This document shows positions 893 through 60,704 of a DNA stretch of 64,000 nt, in pieces. The DNA lies in the NCBI RefSeq assembly GCF_055900595.2, contig NZ_CM148325.1; one strand, given 5' to 3'. The notes under the pieces were generated by a model that was not told the origin of the DNA, did not search any database, and saw only the letters and a program-made list of their open reading frames with translations. Position 1 is the stretch's first letter, and each line of letters opens with the position of its first letter. Made by a program: the position numbers and the translations under genes.

Positions 893-1767
893 TGGCGGAA
901 GTTACCCAATTGAAGCGTTATGACACGCGCCCAATTAACTGGGGCAAATGGTTTCTGATTGGCACCGGAATGCTGGTTTCGGCGTTCATCCTGCTGGTGC
1001 CGATGATTTACATTTTCGTGCAGGCATTCAGCAAAGGGCTGATGCCGGTGTTACAGAATCTGGCCGATCCGGACATGCTGCACGCCATCTGGCTGACGGT
1101 GATGATCGCGCTGATTGCCGTACCGGTAAACCTGGTGTTCGGGATTCTGCTGGCCTGGCTGGTGACGCGCTTTAACTTCCCCGGACGCCAGTTGCTGCTG
1201 ACGCTGCTGGACATTCCGTTTGCCGTGTCGCCGGTGGTTGCCGGTCTGGTCTATCTGCTTTTCTACGGCTCTAACGGCCCGCTCGGCGGCTGGCTGGATG
1301 AACATAATCTGCAAATTATGTTCTCCTGGCCGGGAATGGTGCTGGTCACCATCTTCGTGACCTGTCCGTTTGTGGTGCGCGAGCTGGTGCCGGTGATGTT
1401 AAGCCAGGGCAGCCAGGAAGACGAAGCGGCGATTTTGCTTGGCGCGTCTGGCTGGCAGATGTTCCGCCGCGTCACGCTGCCGAACATCCGCTGGGCTCTG
1501 CTTTATGGCGTGGTGCTGACCAACGCCCGTGCGATTGGCGAGTTTGGCGCGGTGTCGGTGGTTTCCGGCTCGATTCGCGGTGAAACACTTTCGCTGCCGT
1601 TACAGATTGAATTGCTGGAGCAGGACTACAACACCGTCGGCTCCTTTACCGCCGCGGCGCTGTTGACGCTGATGGCGATTATCACCCTGTTTTTAAAGAG
1701 TATGTTGCAGTGGCGCCTGGAGAATCAGGAAAAACGCGCGCAACAGGAGGAACATCATGAGCATTGA
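892..1767 (+). CDS. cysW: Sulfate/thiosulfate ABC transporter permease CysW
   Basis: 291-aa ORF; start overlaps cysU stop (TAATG); paralogous permease profile. Confidence 0.95.
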
Positions 1768-4104: not shown

Positions 4105-4839
4105 TTAATTTTCGTGTGGAAACGTAGTAAGGTCATCAATCATTTTTTGAAGTATTGGTGAGTCCTGACCATCACCCCATTGAAGAATTTTTGCGGTAAG
4201 CTGATGACGGGCTAGTGCATTGAGTCCCATCTTTTTAAGTTTATGGGAGATTTTACCCATGACTTTAATCTGACCGAATGCAGTTGCGTAGGTAATCATA
4301 TTGCTCTGGATAGTGCTCATTTCATCGGCTAGTAATTGCGCACGAATATCCTCTTCAAGAATACTTTCCATAGCGATATATTTCATACCCCAGATAGTTT
4401 CAATTAACATTTGAGGGAAATCAGCACAATCTAGATCCGGCTCTTTACGCAGGCTATTTTCAAGAACGTTTAGAGCATCAGCACCTTCATCGCTGCCAAA
4501 AGGAGATTCTTCATCCCAGCAACACACATAAAGTGGATCAGTAAAATGGCACTGGAAGTTTGGGTGTGACGTTTTAACATGTAACCCAATTTCTTCATCA
4601 TCAAAATAGTAGCGATCCATGTAGTTAAAGTTTGGATCTTCTTGATAGCCTTTCTTCATTTTTGCGGCAATCAATTTACTGGCTTCTTTCAGACACTGTT
4701 CTTCATTATCGAACTCTTTTGTCTGGAATTTACCAATACTACCTACCTTGCCATAGTTGATGGCTAAACTATCCCCTTCGTAATCTATCCACCAAAATTT
4801 ATTCGATTTTTCATCGTTATAAATAAAGCATTTTTTCAT
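4105..4839 (-). CDS. yfeS: WGR-domain protein YfeS (function unknown)
   Basis: 244-aa ORF, N-terminal FWWIDYEGDSLAINYGKVGSIG resembles WGR domain; conserved position between cysM and yfeK. Confidence 0.85.
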   Translation of the reverse strand: MKKCFIYNDEKSNKFWWIDYEGDSLAINYGKVGSIGKFQTKEFDNEEQCLKEASKLIAAKMKKGYQEDPNFNYMDRYYFDDEEIGLHVKTSHPNFQCHFTDPLYVCCWDEESPFGSDEGADALNVLENSLRKEPDLDCADFPQMLIETIWGMKYIAMESILEEDIRAQLLADEMSTIQSNMITYATAFGQIKVMGKISHKLKKMGLNALARHQLTAKILQWGDGQDSPILQKMIDDLTTFPHEN

Positions 4840-46790: not shown

Positions 46791-46845
46791 TTCCTACAAT
46801 TGTAAGACTAAATACTTCTTGCGATAATAACTACAACTGTAAGAT
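46791..46845. promoter_or_regulatory. Two EvgA-box-like 18-bp inverted repeats upstream of yfdX
   Basis: TTCCTACA-AT-TGTAAGAC (46791-46808) and TAACTACA-AC-TGTAAGAT (46828-46845) versus consensus TTCYTACA-N2-TGTARGAA. Confidence 0.45.
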
Positions 46846-47819: not shown

Positions 47820-47837
47820 TTCTTACAGTTGTAAGAA
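47820..47837. promoter_or_regulatory. Perfect EvgA-box palindrome about 250 bp upstream of frc
   Basis: TTCTTACA-GT-TGTAAGAA, a perfect 8-2-8 inverted repeat matching the EvgA consensus. Confidence 0.55.
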
Positions 47838-53374: not shown

Positions 53375-56300
53375 TTAGTCATTTTGTTGACAGAAAACCG
53401 CAATCTCCTGGTCTAACTCTGCAATGTGTTCTTTAACAGAGTTCAGCAACTTAAGAATTTCAGGCTTGCTGTCATCTGAAACTGGCGTTATTTCTAACTG
53501 GTGGCTAAGATTAATCAACTTTTGCAAATTCAGGATGTTAGCCGCACCGTGGATGCGATGAATACACTGATGGAAAGTTCTGTTATCGCCAGCTTCTAAC
53601 GCATGAAACGCAGCGGGTAGATCTTTATGCGTTTCATGCTGGAAAGTCATGAGAATCTCCTGCATCAGTTGTAGATCGTTCGCCGTATTATTTTTCAGGG
53701 CCTCGATATCAAGGTGGCGATACTGAGGTGCAATATGTGCAACCTGGTGTAACTGACTTAAATGTGTTTTCAGTACATCCAGGGTTAACGGTTTGAACAA
53801 ACATAAGTTCATGCCGCAATTTAACCCTTTTTCACGTTCGTTAGCCTGTGCGTTGGCTGTAAGCCCCCAGATGGGTAAGGAAGAATTTTGCTCACGGAGT
53901 TTGCGAGTCAACTCAAAACCATCCATATTCGGCATATTAACGTCAGTAATAAGCAGATCATAATGCTGCATACTGACTTTGTGTAGCGCCTGTACACCAT
54001 CAGAGGCTTCATCAACATCATATCCTAATAGGTTTAGCTGGCGTTTGAGTAATAGCCTGTTGGTCGGATGATCATCCGCGATTAATATGCTCAACTTTTC
54101 AGGGAGTGTCATAGGTTGTTCTGCTTTTGCCTCGACAGTCGCCACTTGTTGGGTAATTTCTACCGGGATTGTGATCGTAAATGTCGTTCCTATGCCGGGA
54201 TGACTTTCTAATGACAAATCGCCCTGCATGTTTTTAATTAATTCTTTGCAGATCATTAAGCCTAAACCAGAACCTGTTTGCTGACGACCTGCTGTTGTTT
54301 GGCTATAGCGTTTAAACAGTTGTTGTTGTTCTTCCTGCGATAATCCGCTTCCGGTGTCCATAATCGTCATTTTGATAACAGCGTGGTTGTCATCAATATG
54401 AACCAGGGAAGTCGTAATTTTTACTGCCCCCTCGGTGGTAAATTTAAGGGCATTACTCAGTAAATTAGACAGCACCTGCTTAAATGCTTGAGGGTCGATT
54501 TTAACCAGGTAGCGTTCAGGAAGCGTACTGCTGCAATTTAATGCGATGGATTTGCTTGCAGCAATCGCACCGAAAGAATGACAAGTGTTCTGGACTAAAG
54601 TAGGGATATCGACCCATTGTGGTTGAAGTTGATAGTTACCCGACTCAATTTTGTCGACATCAAGGATTTCACCAATTAAGCCGAGGAGCGACTGTCCGGT
54701 GGCGTAAGCAAGTGAAATCGCCTCCACACGTTGCTCCTTGCTAAGACCTGAACCCGACAGAAGTTCCAGGAAGCCCATAATGGAGCTTATTGGTGTTCTT
54801 ATTTCGTGACTCATTGTTGCCAGGAACTGGCTTTTTGCGACAGTTGCATTGATCGCTTTATTTCTTTCTACTTCGAGTGCATGAATTAAATCACGCGTCT
54901 CGGTAATATCTTGCCAACCACAAATATATACTGCATTGTCACTTGCAGGTAAATTGCATAATGTATGCCAATGATTAATGCATCTTTTTTCAGTACCATT
55001 ATTAATTTCAAAAACTTGGCTATATATTGTTCTGTTTTCTTTTGTTTCTGCTGTGACTTCATGCACATTAGAAAAAACATCTTTAAAGGGGGAGTCACTG
55101 TTTTCTAATGGTAACATTGCATTTTTGTAGTAATCAGCAGTGAAATAATGTTCAAATGCACTATTGTGACTAATGACATTACCTTGCCAGTTTACAACAT
55201 AAGTTGGATTCGGTAAGGAATCCGAGAGTGCTTTCCGGAATGATATTTGGTTTTCTAAATCACCCTGAATTACCTTACGACGACGAACTGAGCGTAACAG
55301 GTAGAATCCCCATAAAAGGCTACTGCCAACTAATAAAACGGATAAAGTCGTAACAATGTAAAATTGCTCACTATAGAGGTCCCATGTGTCAATGGTCACA
55401 TTGGGCATTTTGATCCATTTTTCCGTCAGGCGCAGAACTTCGCTTGGGGGAATTGCATTCAATGCTTTATTAATAATATCCTTAAGTTCTGGTTCTCCGC
55501 GAGGAAAAGCGAACGAAAGCGATGCATTCTCAACGCCGGGAATAAGAAAATGATAAAGCTCATTAGGATAGTAATGGTCGATCATGTAACGCGAATTTAG
55601 CTGTGTCGCGACCAGGGCATCAAGTTCACCTTCCTTAACCTTGTGAAATGCAGCGCTAGCATTATCGACTTGTATCCACTCAACCTCCGGATACATCTCT
55701 TTCAATTGCGAATGAAGCTCATAATAATATGGAATGGCAACTTTCATTCCTTTTTTTAAAGTTTGTTCACTATCAGGCGCTTTTTGCATGACGAAAACGT
55801 AAGGCGTTGTTATGAATGCTTCAGCAAATAAAACATTATTTTCTCGATCTTCATTATAAATAGCGCCAGGTAAGATATCCCATCCATCGGGATTAAGCTG
55901 TGTTCCGGCATGGATATTGTGTGAAACGGTGATCGGAGAAAATCTTAAACCTGTTTGCAATGTAATAATATTAAGAATATCCCCCATAACGCCCCGAACC
56001 GAGCCATTTTCATCAGTCATAGAATAGGGAGGGGAGTAAGGATTTTCCAGCACCTTTAAATCGGGATGTTGCTTAATCCACTGTTTTTCATGTTCAGTGA
56101 GTTCTAATGGTTTGTTCAGAAAGGCCAGGTTTCCTGTATCAAGCCAATTTTGTGATACTTCATAGCGAACTTCATTTGTTAAAGCATCAACAAACCGATT
56201 GAGTACTTCATTAAGAATGACGGATTCTTTTCTGGTCAAGAAAAAATTATATTGACGCGGCGAGTTATAATATTTCACTACATTTAAGGAGTGAGTGAAA

Positions 56301-56968
56301 TAGCGGGAAATCATACTGCTGGTAATGATGTTACTACCAATAAAGTAATCATTATGTCCGGTAGAAACGGATGCTAATGCCTGATATAAATTTGTAAAAG
56401 AGATAATTGTTGCTTTTGGAAATGATTGATGAATTACCTTGTCTGGGGGGTAATTTGCTACCCGAGCAATATTTACTGGTTTTGGTGAGGTAAGCGGTCG
56501 CATTGAGTCGTGAAGGGTGGTTACCAGCGCCGGAAAGGTAATTATCAATGGTTTGGTTGCAGCAATGTCATTATTAAGAGGCGGCGAAGTAACTAAATGT
56601 GATAACACTATATCGACTTCACCTTCTGCAAGCGCGTCCATTGCTTTTTGATGATCTGCGTATTCCCGGAGTGTTAATTTGATATTTAACGCTCTTTTTA
56701 AAAGATTTAAATAATCAGCATTAATACCACGAACCCGTTGCTGCGAATCGGTATGCAACAACGTAGCCGTTTGGGACTTGTGTACTGCAATCACAAGATT
56801 TTTTTTGCTCGCTAACCAACGTAATTCCTTGTTGCTCAGACGTAGTGGATCAAGCGTGACACGGTTGTTACTACTGATGCCACGATATTCGATGTAATCT
56901 TCGTCTGCGAAACTTATGGTCGACCAAAGACCACAACAGAGAAGAAAAAAATAGGGTAAAAACTTCAT
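53375..56968 (-). CDS. evgS: Hybrid sensor histidine kinase EvgS (periplasmic tandem binding domains, HisKA/HATPase, receiver, HPt)
   Basis: 1197 aa; His box SHEIRTP, receiver domain and C-terminal HPt. Confidence 0.95.
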   Translation of the reverse strand: MKFLPYFFLLCCGLWSTISFADEDYIEYRGISSNNRVTLDPLRLSNKELRWLASKKNLVIAVHKSQTATLLHTDSQQRVRGINADYLNLLKRALNIKLTLREYADHQKAMDALAEGEVDIVLSHLVTSPPLNNDIAATKPLIITFPALVTTLHDSMRPLTSPKPVNIARVANYPPDKVIHQSFPKATIISFTNLYQALASVSTGHNDYFIGSNIITSSMISRYFTHSLNVVKYYNSPRQYNFFLTRKESVILNEVLNRFVDALTNEVRYEVSQNWLDTGNLAFLNKPLELTEHEKQWIKQHPDLKVLENPYSPPYSMTDENGSVRGVMGDILNIITLQTGLRFSPITVSHNIHAGTQLNPDGWDILPGAIYNEDRENNVLFAEAFITTPYVFVMQKAPDSEQTLKKGMKVAIPYYYELHSQLKEMYPEVEWIQVDNASAAFHKVKEGELDALVATQLNSRYMIDHYYPNELYHFLIPGVENASLSFAFPRGEPELKDIINKALNAIPPSEVLRLTEKWIKMPNVTIDTWDLYSEQFYIVTTLSVLLVGSSLLWGFYLLRSVRRRKVIQGDLENQISFRKALSDSLPNPTYVVNWQGNVISHNSAFEHYFTADYYKNAMLPLENSDSPFKDVFSNVHEVTAETKENRTIYSQVFEINNGTEKRCINHWHTLCNLPASDNAVYICGWQDITETRDLIHALEVERNKAINATVAKSQFLATMSHEIRTPISSIMGFLELLSGSGLSKEQRVEAISLAYATGQSLLGLIGEILDVDKIESGNYQLQPQWVDIPTLVQNTCHSFGAIAASKSIALNCSSTLPERYLVKIDPQAFKQVLSNLLSNALKFTTEGAVKITTSLVHIDDNHAVIKMTIMDTGSGLSQEEQQQLFKRYSQTTAGRQQTGSGLGLMICKELIKNMQGDLSLESHPGIGTTFTITIPVEITQQVATVEAKAEQPMTLPEKLSILIADDHPTNRLLLKRQLNLLGYDVDEASDGVQALHKVSMQHYDLLITDVNMPNMDGFELTRKLREQNSSLPIWGLTANAQANEREKGLNCGMNLCLFKPLTLDVLKTHLSQLHQVAHIAPQYRHLDIEALKNNTANDLQLMQEILMTFQHETHKDLPAAFHALEAGDNRTFHQCIHRIHGAANILNLQKLINLSHQLEITPVSDDSKPEILKLLNSVKEHIAELDQEIAVFCQQND

Positions 56969-56972
56969 GTGA

Positions 56973-57587
56973 TTAGCCGATTTTGTTACGTTGCGCGAAT
57001 GTGTAAAGATCCATCAGTGATTTACATTCTAATTTTTCCATCAGGCGACTTTTATACGTGCTGACAGTTTTGTTGCTGATGAACATTTTTTCCGCAATGT
57101 CATTATTGTCCTTGCCATCAAGAATATACCTCATGACACTAATTTCTTGTTTCGATAAGGAGTCGAGTTTTTGCTGGTCGGACGTTAAACTTCCAACAAA
57201 CCGGTTGAGAGAGAAAGGGAAATAGCAGTAGCCATTTTTTGCAGCTTCAATAGCCGCAATGATATTGTTCATGCCTTCTTTTTTACTCACGAATCCATTA
57301 GCGCCTGCATCAGCACAATGTTTCCCGTAAAAATGGTCATTTTTAGCGGAGACGATAATAATAATTCCGCTATATTGGCGCTTCCTCAGCGTTTCTAACA
57401 CCTGGATACCGTTAACTCCGGGGATATCGACATCAATGATGACGATATCAGGTTTAAGTGTTTCCACCCGCTGAACGGCACTTCCCCCTTCAGTCAACTC
57501 CGCTAAGATTTCAATATCGTTTTTGATCAATAAATTACGAATTGCTGCGATAGCAAGAGGATGGTCATCAATAATTATTGCGTTCAT
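56973..57587 (-). CDS. evgA: Response regulator EvgA (NarL/FixJ family)
   Basis: 204 aa; receiver domain plus LuxR-type HTH. Confidence 0.95.
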   Translation of the reverse strand: MNAIIIDDHPLAIAAIRNLLIKNDIEILAELTEGGSAVQRVETLKPDIVIIDVDIPGVNGIQVLETLRKRQYSGIIIIVSAKNDHFYGKHCADAGANGFVSKKEGMNNIIAAIEAAKNGYCYFPFSLNRFVGSLTSDQQKLDSLSKQEISVMRYILDGKDNNDIAEKMFISNKTVSTYKSRLMEKLECKSLMDLYTFAQRNKIG

Positions 57588-57801
57588 AGATTATTCCCTT
57601 TGCAATGAAGCATCTCCCTTCTCCCTGTAGTAATACAGACATAAGGCATCATCTCATTTTCTCAATCAAAATAAGAAAATTTGAGCTTCCTTTAAGATAA
57701 TTCAACAAGTATACCATATAAATAGTCGGCATAAATGAAATGTCAACAATAAAATCAGGGATAATACCGCTAACTTATAGTTTCAAATGAGTACTATAAG
57801 G

Positions 57802-57819
57802 CTTCTTATTAATCCTACA
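57802..57819. promoter_or_regulatory. EvgA-box-like inverted repeat in evgA-emrK divergent region
   Basis: ATCCTACA-GG-CGTAAGAA versus TTCYTACA-N2-TGTARGAA, one mismatch per half. Confidence 0.5.
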
Positions 57820-58002
57820 GGCGTAAGAATTGTATTGCAAAAGTCACGGTTTAGTCCTCTGTTGTATCTTCTGCAACTCCTTTAAATTAGGCCTCCAACG
57901 TTCCTGGGATAATGTGTAACACATGCACTGTGTTTGATATGAAGAATGAATACTCTTTTCATTCAATTCATAAATTTCATCTATGCGAAATGAGAGATAA
58001 TA

Positions 58003-59166
58003 GTGGAACAGATTAATTCAAATAAAAAACATTCTGACAGAAGAAAATATTTTGCTTTATTAGCAGTGGTTTTATTTATTGCGTTTTCAGGAGCCTATGC
58101 CTATTGGTCACTGGAATTAGAAGACATGATTAGTACAGATGACGCCTATGTTACGGGGAATGCTGATCCAATTTCTGCACAAGTCTCAGGCAGTGTCACT
58201 GTCGTTAATCATAAAGATACGAACTTTGTTCGACAGGGTGACATTTTAGTTTCACTGGATAAAACTGATGCTACGATTGCACTCAATAAAGCTAAAAATA
58301 ATCTGGCAAATATTGTGCGACAAACGAATAAACTATACTTACAGGATAAACAATACAGTGCCGAAGTCGCTTCAGCACGTATCCAGTATCAACAATCTTT
58401 AGAAGATTATAATCGTCGTGTGCCGCTAGCAAAGCAGGGGGTTATTTCAAAAGAAACGCTGGAGCACACCAAAGATACGTTAATAAGTAGCAAAGCGGCA
58501 TTGAATGCAGCTATTCAGGCTTATAAAGCGAACAAAGCCTTAGTAATGAACACACCATTAAATCGCCAGCCACAAGTTGTTGAAGCTGCGGATGCAACCA
58601 AAGAAGCCTGGTTGGCGCTTAAACGTACGGATATTAAGAGTCCGGTTACCGGTTATATTGCCCAGAGAAGTGTTCAGGTCGGCGAAACAGTGAGTCCTGG
58701 ACAATCGTTAATGGCTGTCGTACCGGCACGTCAAATGTGGGTTAATGCCAACTTTAAAGAAACACAACTCACGGATGTACGGATTGGTCAATCGGTTAAT
58801 ATAATCAGCGATCTTTATGGTGAAAATGTTGTGTTTCATGGTCAGGTGACAGGGATCAATATGGGAACCGGCAATGCGTTCTCCTTATTACCTGCACAAA
58901 ATGCGACAGGGAACTGGATCAAAATCGTTCAGCGTGTACCGGTTGAGGTGTCTCTGGATCCAAAAGAACTCATGGAACATCCCTTGCGCATTGGTTTATC
59001 GATGACTGCAACCATTGATACCAGGAACGAAGACATTGCCGATATGCCTGATCTGGCTTCATCCGTGACGTCAATGCCTGCTTACACCAGTAAGGCCTTA
59101 GTTATCGATACCAGTCCGATAGAAAAAGAGATTAACAACATTATTTCTCATAATGGACAACTTTAA
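58003..59166 (+). CDS. emrK: Multidrug efflux periplasmic adaptor EmrK (EmrA paralog)
   Basis: 387 aa HlyD-family membrane fusion protein. Confidence 0.93.
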   Translation: MEQINSNKKHSDRRKYFALLAVVLFIAFSGAYAYWSLELEDMISTDDAYVTGNADPISAQVSGSVTVVNHKDTNFVRQGDILVSLDKTDATIALNKAKNNLANIVRQTNKLYLQDKQYSAEVASARIQYQQSLEDYNRRVPLAKQGVISKETLEHTKDTLISSKAALNAAIQAYKANKALVMNTPLNRQPQVVEAADATKEAWLALKRTDIKSPVTGYIAQRSVQVGETVSPGQSLMAVVPARQMWVNANFKETQLTDVRIGQSVNIISDLYGENVVFHGQVTGINMGTGNAFSLLPAQNATGNWIKIVQRVPVEVSLDPKELMEHPLRIGLSMTATIDTRNEDIADMPDLASSVTSMPAYTSKALVIDTSPIEKEINNIISHNGQL

Positions 59167-60704
59167 TGGCAATCACTAAATCAACTCCGGCACCATTAAC
59201 CGGTGGGACGTTATGGTGCGTCACTATTGCATTGTCATTAGCGACGTTTATGCAAATGTTGGACTCCACTATTTCTAACGTCGCAATACCCACAATATCT
59301 GGCTTTCTCGGAGCATCAACGGACGAAGGCACATGGGTTATCACATCGTTTGGCGTAGCAAATGCCATTGCGATCCCTGTTACCGGCAGGCTGGCACAAA
59401 GAATAGGCGAATTAAGGTTATTTTTACTATCAGTAACCTTCTTTTCGCTGTCTTCATTAATGTGTAGTCTTTCGACTAATCTTGATGTTCTTATATTTTT
59501 TAGAGTCGTCCAGGGATTAATGGCGGGGCCGTTAATTCCATTGTCACAGAGTTTATTATTAAGGAATTATCCGCCAGAAAAAAGAACATTTGCTTTGGCG
59601 TTATGGTCAATGACCGTAATTATCGCTCCGATTTGTGGGCCGATATTGGGTGGCTATATTTGTGATAACTTTAGTTGGGGATGGATATTTTTAATCAATG
59701 TCCCTATGGGGATTATCGTCCTGACATTATGTTTAACTTTACTTAAAGGAAGAGAAACTGAAACTTCACCGGTCAAAATGAATTTACCAGGGTTGACCCT
59801 GTTAGTGCTCGGTGTTGGTGGCTTGCAAATTATGCTTGATAAAGGGCGCGATCTGGATTGGTTTAACTCGAGTACAATCATAATATTAACAATAGTGTCA
59901 GTTATTTCTCTGATCTCTCTAGTCATTTGGGAGTCGACCTCAGAGAACCCGATTCTTGACCTCAGTTTATTCACGTCGCGTAATTTCACCATTGGTATTG
60001 TGTGTATCACATGCGCATATTTATTTTACTCTGGGGCGATTGTACTTATGCCGCAGTTGCTGCAGGAAACTATGGGGTATAATGCGATATGGGCCGGGCT
60101 TGCCTATGCGCCAATCGGCATAATGCCACTATTAATATCGCCTTTAATAGGACGTTATGGCAACAAAATTGATATGCGTGCATTGGTTACATTTAGTTTT
60201 TTGATGTATGCGGTTTGCTATTACTGGCGTTCTGTGACATTTATGCCAACGATTGATTTCACAGGCATCATTTTGCCACAGTTTTTCCAGGGATTCGCCG
60301 TTGCCTGTTTCTTTTTACCCTTAACAACGATTTCGTTTTCAGGGTTGCCAGATAATAAATTTGCCAATGCCTCGAGTATGAGTAATTTTTTTCGTACCCT
60401 GTCAGGATCAGTTGGTACGTCGTTGACAATGACGTTGTGGGGACGACGCGAATCGTTACACCATAGTCAGTTGACAGCAACCATCGATCAATTTAACCCC
60501 GTGTTTAATTCATCATCACAAATTATGGATAAATACTATGGTTCGCTTTCAGGGGTTCTTAATGAAATTAATAATGAAATAACTCAGCAGTCACTTTCAA
60601 TTTCTGCAAATGAGATTTTCCGTATGGCGGCTATTGCTTTTATCTTACTTACGGTATTGGTTTGGTTTGCGAAACCGCCGTTTACAGCGAAAGGTGTTGG
60701 GTGA
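59166..60704 (+). CDS. emrY: Multidrug efflux MFS transporter EmrY (EmrB paralog)
   Basis: 512 aa, 14-TM MFS; start overlaps emrK stop. Confidence 0.93.
   Translation: MAITKSTPAPLTGGTLWCVTIALSLATFMQMLDSTISNVAIPTISGFLGASTDEGTWVITSFGVANAIAIPVTGRLAQRIGELRLFLLSVTFFSLSSLMCSLSTNLDVLIFFRVVQGLMAGPLIPLSQSLLLRNYPPEKRTFALALWSMTVIIAPICGPILGGYICDNFSWGWIFLINVPMGIIVLTLCLTLLKGRETETSPVKMNLPGLTLLVLGVGGLQIMLDKGRDLDWFNSSTIIILTIVSVISLISLVIWESTSENPILDLSLFTSRNFTIGIVCITCAYLFYSGAIVLMPQLLQETMGYNAIWAGLAYAPIGIMPLLISPLIGRYGNKIDMRALVTFSFLMYAVCYYWRSVTFMPTIDFTGIILPQFFQGFAVACFFLPLTTISFSGLPDNKFANASSMSNFFRTLSGSVGTSLTMTLWGRRESLHHSQLTATIDQFNPVFNSSSQIMDKYYGSLSGVLNEINNEITQQSLSISANEIFRMAAIAFILLTVLVWFAKPPFTAKGVG

Follow-up and report, generated by a model that had tools for sequence, protein, structure and literature searches.

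The 415-bp spacer (57588-58002) that separates the divergent evgS-evgA (-) and emrK-emrY (+) operons of an Escherichia coli genome contained an 18-bp imperfect inverted repeat, ATCCTACAGGCGTAAGAA, which is very probably the EvgA operator of emrKY, with evgAS itself being essentially independent of EvgA and ruled mainly at the post-transcriptional level. The spacer was analysed within its surrounding 64-kb stretch of DNA (the window), and the features discussed below are collected in Table 1.

The limits of the spacer proposed in the initial annotation were correct, with the evgA ATG at 57587 (-) and the emrK GTG at 58003 as the flanking start codons. The cognate regulator was present and intact, with the Pfam domains Response_reg (1.5e-27) and GerE (2.8e-22), and its accession (WP_000991370.1) was common to most of the sampled E. 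coli strains. The spacer had an A+T content of 67% and was 100% identical to that of strain Z0117EC0005 and ~94% identical to those of K-12 and most other E. coli. Identity of at least 99% was reached in just 13 of 5418 records, which indicates that the window belongs to an uncommon E. coli lineage. Twenty places matching the evgA-emrK spacer in the search of E. coli genomes were on plasmid-typed records, and an Rfam scan of 57300-58300 returned no match.

Table 1. Genes, sites and promoter regions at the evgA-emrK locus and related loci; positions refer to the window except in the last two rows, where they refer to the locus named.
Feature	Position	Strand	Remarks
yfdX upstream EvgA boxes	46791-46808 and 46828-46845		two, 37 bp apart
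frc upstream EvgA box	47820-47837		perfect palindrome
evgS	53375-56968	-	hybrid sensor kinase
evgA	56973-57587	-	response regulator
evgL leader ORF	57584-57613	-	9 codons, MLHCKGNNL; intact; stop codon overlaps evgA start
evgA core promoter region	57701-57746	-	-35 and -10-like hexamers, published leader 5' ends
Inverted repeat TTATAGT ... ACTATAA	57775-57799	.	7-bp arms; adjoins EvgA box
Proposed half-site TTCTTATT	57803-57810	+	chance level, polymorphic; judged not functional
EvgA box, ATCCTACA-GG-CGTAAGAA	57812-57829	.	18-bp imperfect inverted repeat; motif, shuffles, conservation
emrK core-promoter region (predicted)	57830-57870	+	AGTCCT at 57853-57858, safA/ydeP geometry
emrK	58003-59166	+	efflux operon
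emrY	59166-60704	+	efflux operon with emrK; dsdA next
TTCCTACAGCTGTCATCC, Klebsiella pneumoniae (L007)	1175-1192		162 bp upstream of kvgA
TTCCTACAGCTGTCATCC, Buttiauxella sp. B2 (L008)	4244-4261		288 bp upstream of evgA-like gene

The sequence TTCYTACA-NN-TGTARGAA, taken to be the EvgA consensus, served as a lead only, and an EvgA matrix was re-derived from five other sites (safA, ydeP, frc and the two of yfdX) with the emrK site excluded. The 18-mer ATCCTACAGGCGTAAGAA was found exactly once in the window, with half-sites at 57812-57819 and 57822-57829 on either side of a central dinucleotide at 57820-57821 (centre 57820.5). The initial annotation had read its sequence correctly but had placed it at 57802-57819 and the adjacent octamer TTCTTATT at 57793-57800, and both required a shift of +10. 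Two mismatches to the consensus were present in the box, one per half-site. With the matrix it scored 19.4 bits against 4.2 for the next-best site in the spacer, a small palindrome (CTGTA-GTAA-TACAG) in the evgA leader at 57619-57636. A score of 19.4 bits was reached by none of 5000 shuffles of the spacer, in which ~0.002 consensus matches with at most two mismatches would be expected. Taken together, the matrix score, the shuffles and the expected count show that the EvgA box is real, well beyond chance and the sole EvgA-type site between evgA and emrK. Across the window, four matches with at most three mismatches were found where 0.63 were expected, and these were the emrK, frc and two yfdX boxes. 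A further sequence, TGCTTACACCAGTAAGGC, located at 59079-59096 in the 3' end of emrK just before emrY, scored 14.8 bits with the EvgA matrix and is probably a chance match, a few such scores being expected in 64 kb by a rough estimate.

The EvgA box 18-mer was identical in K-12, where it occupies positions 2,483,513-2,483,530. A 34-mer around it (57810-57843) occurred exactly in 4889 of 5417 E. coli records, and 374 further records differed from it by G>T at 57820 alone, which is the first base of the central dinucleotide and is left free by the consensus; both half-sites were unchanged in ~97% of the 5417 records. The two positions at which the E. coli box deviates from the consensus were likewise unchanged across the sampled strains. 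The 12 diverse spacers compared had 49 variable columns out of 439, of which only 57820 lay in the box. Given that proportion of variable columns, the chance that all 16 half-site positions would be invariant was ~0.15 by our own arithmetic, so that conservation within the species is weak when taken alone, and a divergent lineage and the motif statistics were relied on instead. The divergent lineage was represented by contig NZ_JAATUR010000016.1, labelled E. coli, in which the spacer was ~87% identical to those of more than 5000 E. coli genomes. Its box, read toward emrK, was TTCCTACAGGTGTAAGAA (1256-1273), a perfect match to the consensus, and both differences from the E. coli box went in the direction of the consensus.

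The adjacent octamer TTCTTATT had been put forward as an additional half-site, a role that was not upheld as it was at chance level, polymorphic and without an inverted partner. It had two mismatches to the half-site and recurred at 57670-57677, and the spacer contained 10 half-site matches with at most two mismatches where 9.8 were expected. Among the 12 spacers it was polymorphic at 57807 and 57809, and the columns just upstream (57801-57802) were also variable. In K-12 the octamer is replaced by TTCTTACT, in the majority of sampled strains by TTCTCACT and in the divergent lineage by TTCTCATT.

The orientation and surroundings of the box pointed to emrK. K-12 has emrK, yfdX and frc sites and, in addition, a site upstream of each of safA and ydeP; in PMC3720670, citing Masuda & Church 2003, inverted repeats bound by EvgA are marked at those yfdX and frc positions. 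Toward the gene that is activated, the sequence is CCTACA-NN-TGTAAG or a near variant of it at safA, at ydeP and at the two yfdX sites; frc has a symmetric palindrome. This polarity was displayed by the spacer box, as CCTACA-NN-nGTAAG, toward emrK and not toward evgA, and the distance from the centre of the box to the emrK start codon downstream was 182.5 bp. An AGTCYT element began exactly 24 nt past the box at emrK, safA and ydeP, and the in-register identity over 70 nt downstream was 30/70 between emrK and safA (shuffle P ~0.003) and 28/70 between emrK and ydeP (shuffle P ~0.01). Positions 57847-57865 were invariant in the 12 E. coli spacers. The frc and proximal yfdX promoters formed a second class with a common CTCTCTGATT starting 23 nt past the box.

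Based on this geometry, the emrK core promoter would be located at ~57830-57870, and the emrK transcription start is predicted at ~57870. Judged by the element shared at +24 to +34, the centre of the box would lie near -50 from that start. A consensus scan revealed no convincing sigma-70 -10/-35 pair downstream of the box, as would normally be the case where a promoter depends on an activator. The promoter and terminator consensus scan of the spacer gave one promoter-like match where 2.3 were expected and was uninformative. The start-site supplement of Kim 2012 lists an antisense start within emrK but none for emrK itself.

Direct binding of EvgA to the emrKY promoter is stated in PMC8174306, PMC9496106 and PMC5706723, all of which cite Kato 2000, and the reviews among them place it at the emrKY promoter region and no finer (PMC9496106, PMC8174306). 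In macrophages, emrK is induced in an EvgA-dependent manner, and mutants of evgA or evgS no longer show the induction (PMC6393483). All directly EvgA-regulated genes are described as carrying an EvgA binding site. Control of emrKY by the EvgA box, as the initial annotation had suggested, was therefore a point on which the motif score, uniqueness, conservation, promoter geometry and direct-binding literature agreed.

The initial annotation had gone further and treated the box as a shared bidirectional operator, through which EvgA would activate emrKY and positively autoregulate evgAS, and this appears unlikely. It would be consistent with the spacer having just one site of the EvgA type. PMC11210196 cites Utsumi 1996 and Tanabe 1998 as having reported autoregulation, and a compilation from 2011 lists evgAS autoregulation with one binding site at a weaker evidence grade (PMC3219618). 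Against a shared operator, the polarity of the box and the +24 motif suit emrK only, and the distance to the evgA promoter is large. The evgA hexamers comprised a perfect -35 (TTGACA, 57741-57746), a -10-like TATTTA/TTTATA at ~57717-57724 and TATACT at 57708-57713. The 5' end of the evgA leader given by Rojano-Nisimura et al. maps to 57710/57711, and in the numbering of Gorelik et al. the evgL ATG is +89, which places their sigma-S evgA start at 57701. With respect to these two published starts the centre of the box is thus at -110.5 or -119.5, which is far for a simple activator, though not impossible. Variability within the spacer was also highest from the box to the evgA -35 (57756-57809), where 16 of 54 columns varied as compared with 11% overall.

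Expression data were also against autoregulation. Fusions of evgA show no response to mild acid (PMC11210196), and evgA mRNA was unchanged in macrophages while emrK was induced (PMC6393483). According to PMC8174306, citing Eguchi 2003 from the Eguchi/Utsumi laboratory, there is no autoregulation of evgAS and EvgS is kept at a constant level, and by this account the laboratory behind an earlier report of evgAS autoregulation later concluded that there was none (PMC8174306). In E. coli NCTC10444 the spacer is cut short by an IS1 element ~175 bp upstream of evgA; this strain retains evgAS together with its core promoter but lacks the EvgA box and emrKY, with fimbrial genes next in line. In view of the later literature and of NCTC10444, the shared-operator half of the interpretation is not supported.

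One other arrangement on the evgA side was considered and set aside. A second evgA promoter nearer to the box was not apparent from the published starts, which are only ~10 nt apart (57701 and 57710/57711), and the TATAGT-like hexamers beside the box, which would put the box at ~-34 if they served as an evgA promoter, had no -35. The evgL reading frame, described in the evgA leader (PMC11210196), is part of that leader and not of the operator. One start reported in Kim 2012 lies 613 nt upstream of evgA, at ~58200 (-) on the antisense strand of emrK, with a promoter that is TTGTCG-17-TATGAT in K-12 and has CTGTCG in the window. Shimada 2017 described a strong RpoS-holoenzyme SELEX peak inside emrK, flagged for evgA. 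A transcript from this antisense start would run across both the promoter of emrK and the box.

An identical 18-mer, TTCCTACAGCTGTCATCC, was located upstream of evgA-like regulator genes in Klebsiella pneumoniae and Buttiauxella sp. B2, and it also speaks for a shared operator in that it is half EvgA-like and lies upstream of the regulator's own gene. The left half of this kvgA-type sequence is a perfect EvgA half-site, and the sequence shares the polarity of the EvgA box and a position upstream of the homologous regulator gene, but its right half fails to match. The next gene upstream in Buttiauxella is an SDR gene of the same orientation, so that the putative site can serve only the operon of the regulator itself. 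A quite improbable proposal is that the box is the core of a longer conserved module and, separately, that the 18-mer retained at kvgA-type loci points to an ancestral autoregulatory operator, later re-purposed for emrKY in Escherichia.

The longer module would draw on elements common to the emrK and safA promoters, AGTCCT at +24 and ACTATAAG upstream of the box, the latter being at emrK one arm of the inverted repeat at 57775-57799. The arms of this repeat were invariant both in the divergent lineage, with its 87%-identical spacer, and in the set of 12 from E. coli, and its centre was hypervariable, with five of the seven positions of 57786-57792 varying. The right arm, ACTATAAG, occurred at -19 to -12 from the box in both the emrK and safA promoters, a coincidence with P ~0.002 per pair and ~0.03 after 15 pairs. 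The repeat could be the site of a second factor or of secondary EvgA contacts that tune emrK or link the box to evgA.

The presence of this conserved repeat next to the box, the AT-rich spacer and the lack of recognisable -35/-10 sequences downstream of the box would be compatible with another regulator of the NarL/FixJ family, one with similar half-sites such as an RcsB-containing dimer, being the main user of the site, or with EvgA acting chiefly through displacement of a silencer such as H-NS instead of recruitment of RNA polymerase. We regard this as very improbable, given that EvgA is the only regulator common to emrKY and ydeP (EcoCyc, as quoted in PMC8174306) and that the mutant data for emrK induction (PMC6393483) stand against it. 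That the box is a chance palindrome of AT-rich intergenic DNA, without a regulatory role, has a negligible probability: the promoter-like and half-site-like matches in the spacer were indeed at chance level, but the full site exceeded both the expected count and every shuffle, was kept and even improved in the 87%-identical lineage, and belongs to a promoter for which direct EvgA binding is reported in the literature.

With the box as the EvgA operator of emrKY, regulation at the locus would very probably proceed as follows. The EvgS phosphorelay is activated by mild acid in combination with alkali metals and aeration, leading to phosphorylation of EvgA. A dimer of phosphorylated EvgA, with its receiver and LuxR/GerE-type helix-turn-helix domains, would bind the two half-sites of the box, and through a presumed EvgA-RNA polymerase contact the bound regulator may help the polymerase to start at the weak promoter predicted directly downstream, within ~57830-57870. 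The resulting emrKY mRNA would have a leader of roughly 130 nt and give rise to the EmrKY-TolC efflux pump. The evgAS operon would be transcribed on the other strand from its own largely constitutive promoters 110-120 bp away, and is controlled for the most part post-transcriptionally, by way of CsrA and the evgL leader ORF.

These results illustrate that a reading of the raw sequence can recover a genuine operator known from experiment, with details to be corrected such as the coordinates, an extra half-site without support and a weak case for autoregulation. Through the EvgA box, the induction of EmrKY-mediated efflux is coupled to acid sensing, a connection relevant to bile and drug tolerance and to the survival of Shigella in macrophages; all of this is established and nothing new is opened by the window.

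Operators of Bordetella BvgA (fha, bvg P1) are bound by a NarL-family regulator at an inverted-repeat primary site, and the system is positively autoregulated. EvgA and BvgA both use an inverted-repeat operator. Unlike for BvgA, there was no sign of cooperative secondary sites at the EvgA box, the adjacent octamer being at chance level, and autoregulation of evgAS was not supported by the literature, although older reports disagree. EvgS/EvgA were named after their similarity to BvgS/BvgA, of the NarL family (PMC9496106). The window corresponded to the E. coli EvgS/EvgA regulon (emrK, ydeP, safA, yfdX, frc) in having the same locus, the K-12 18-mer, the motif and the adjacent regulator. EvgA-binding inverted repeats of E. 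coli were reportedly described by Kato in 2000, by Masuda & Church in 2003 and by Itou in 2009. About 6% of the positions of the window spacer differed from K-12, none of them in the box and with nothing substantive being different, and the site is very probably the already known EvgA operator of emrKY, described since 2000-2003, at the orthologous position in another E. coli strain.
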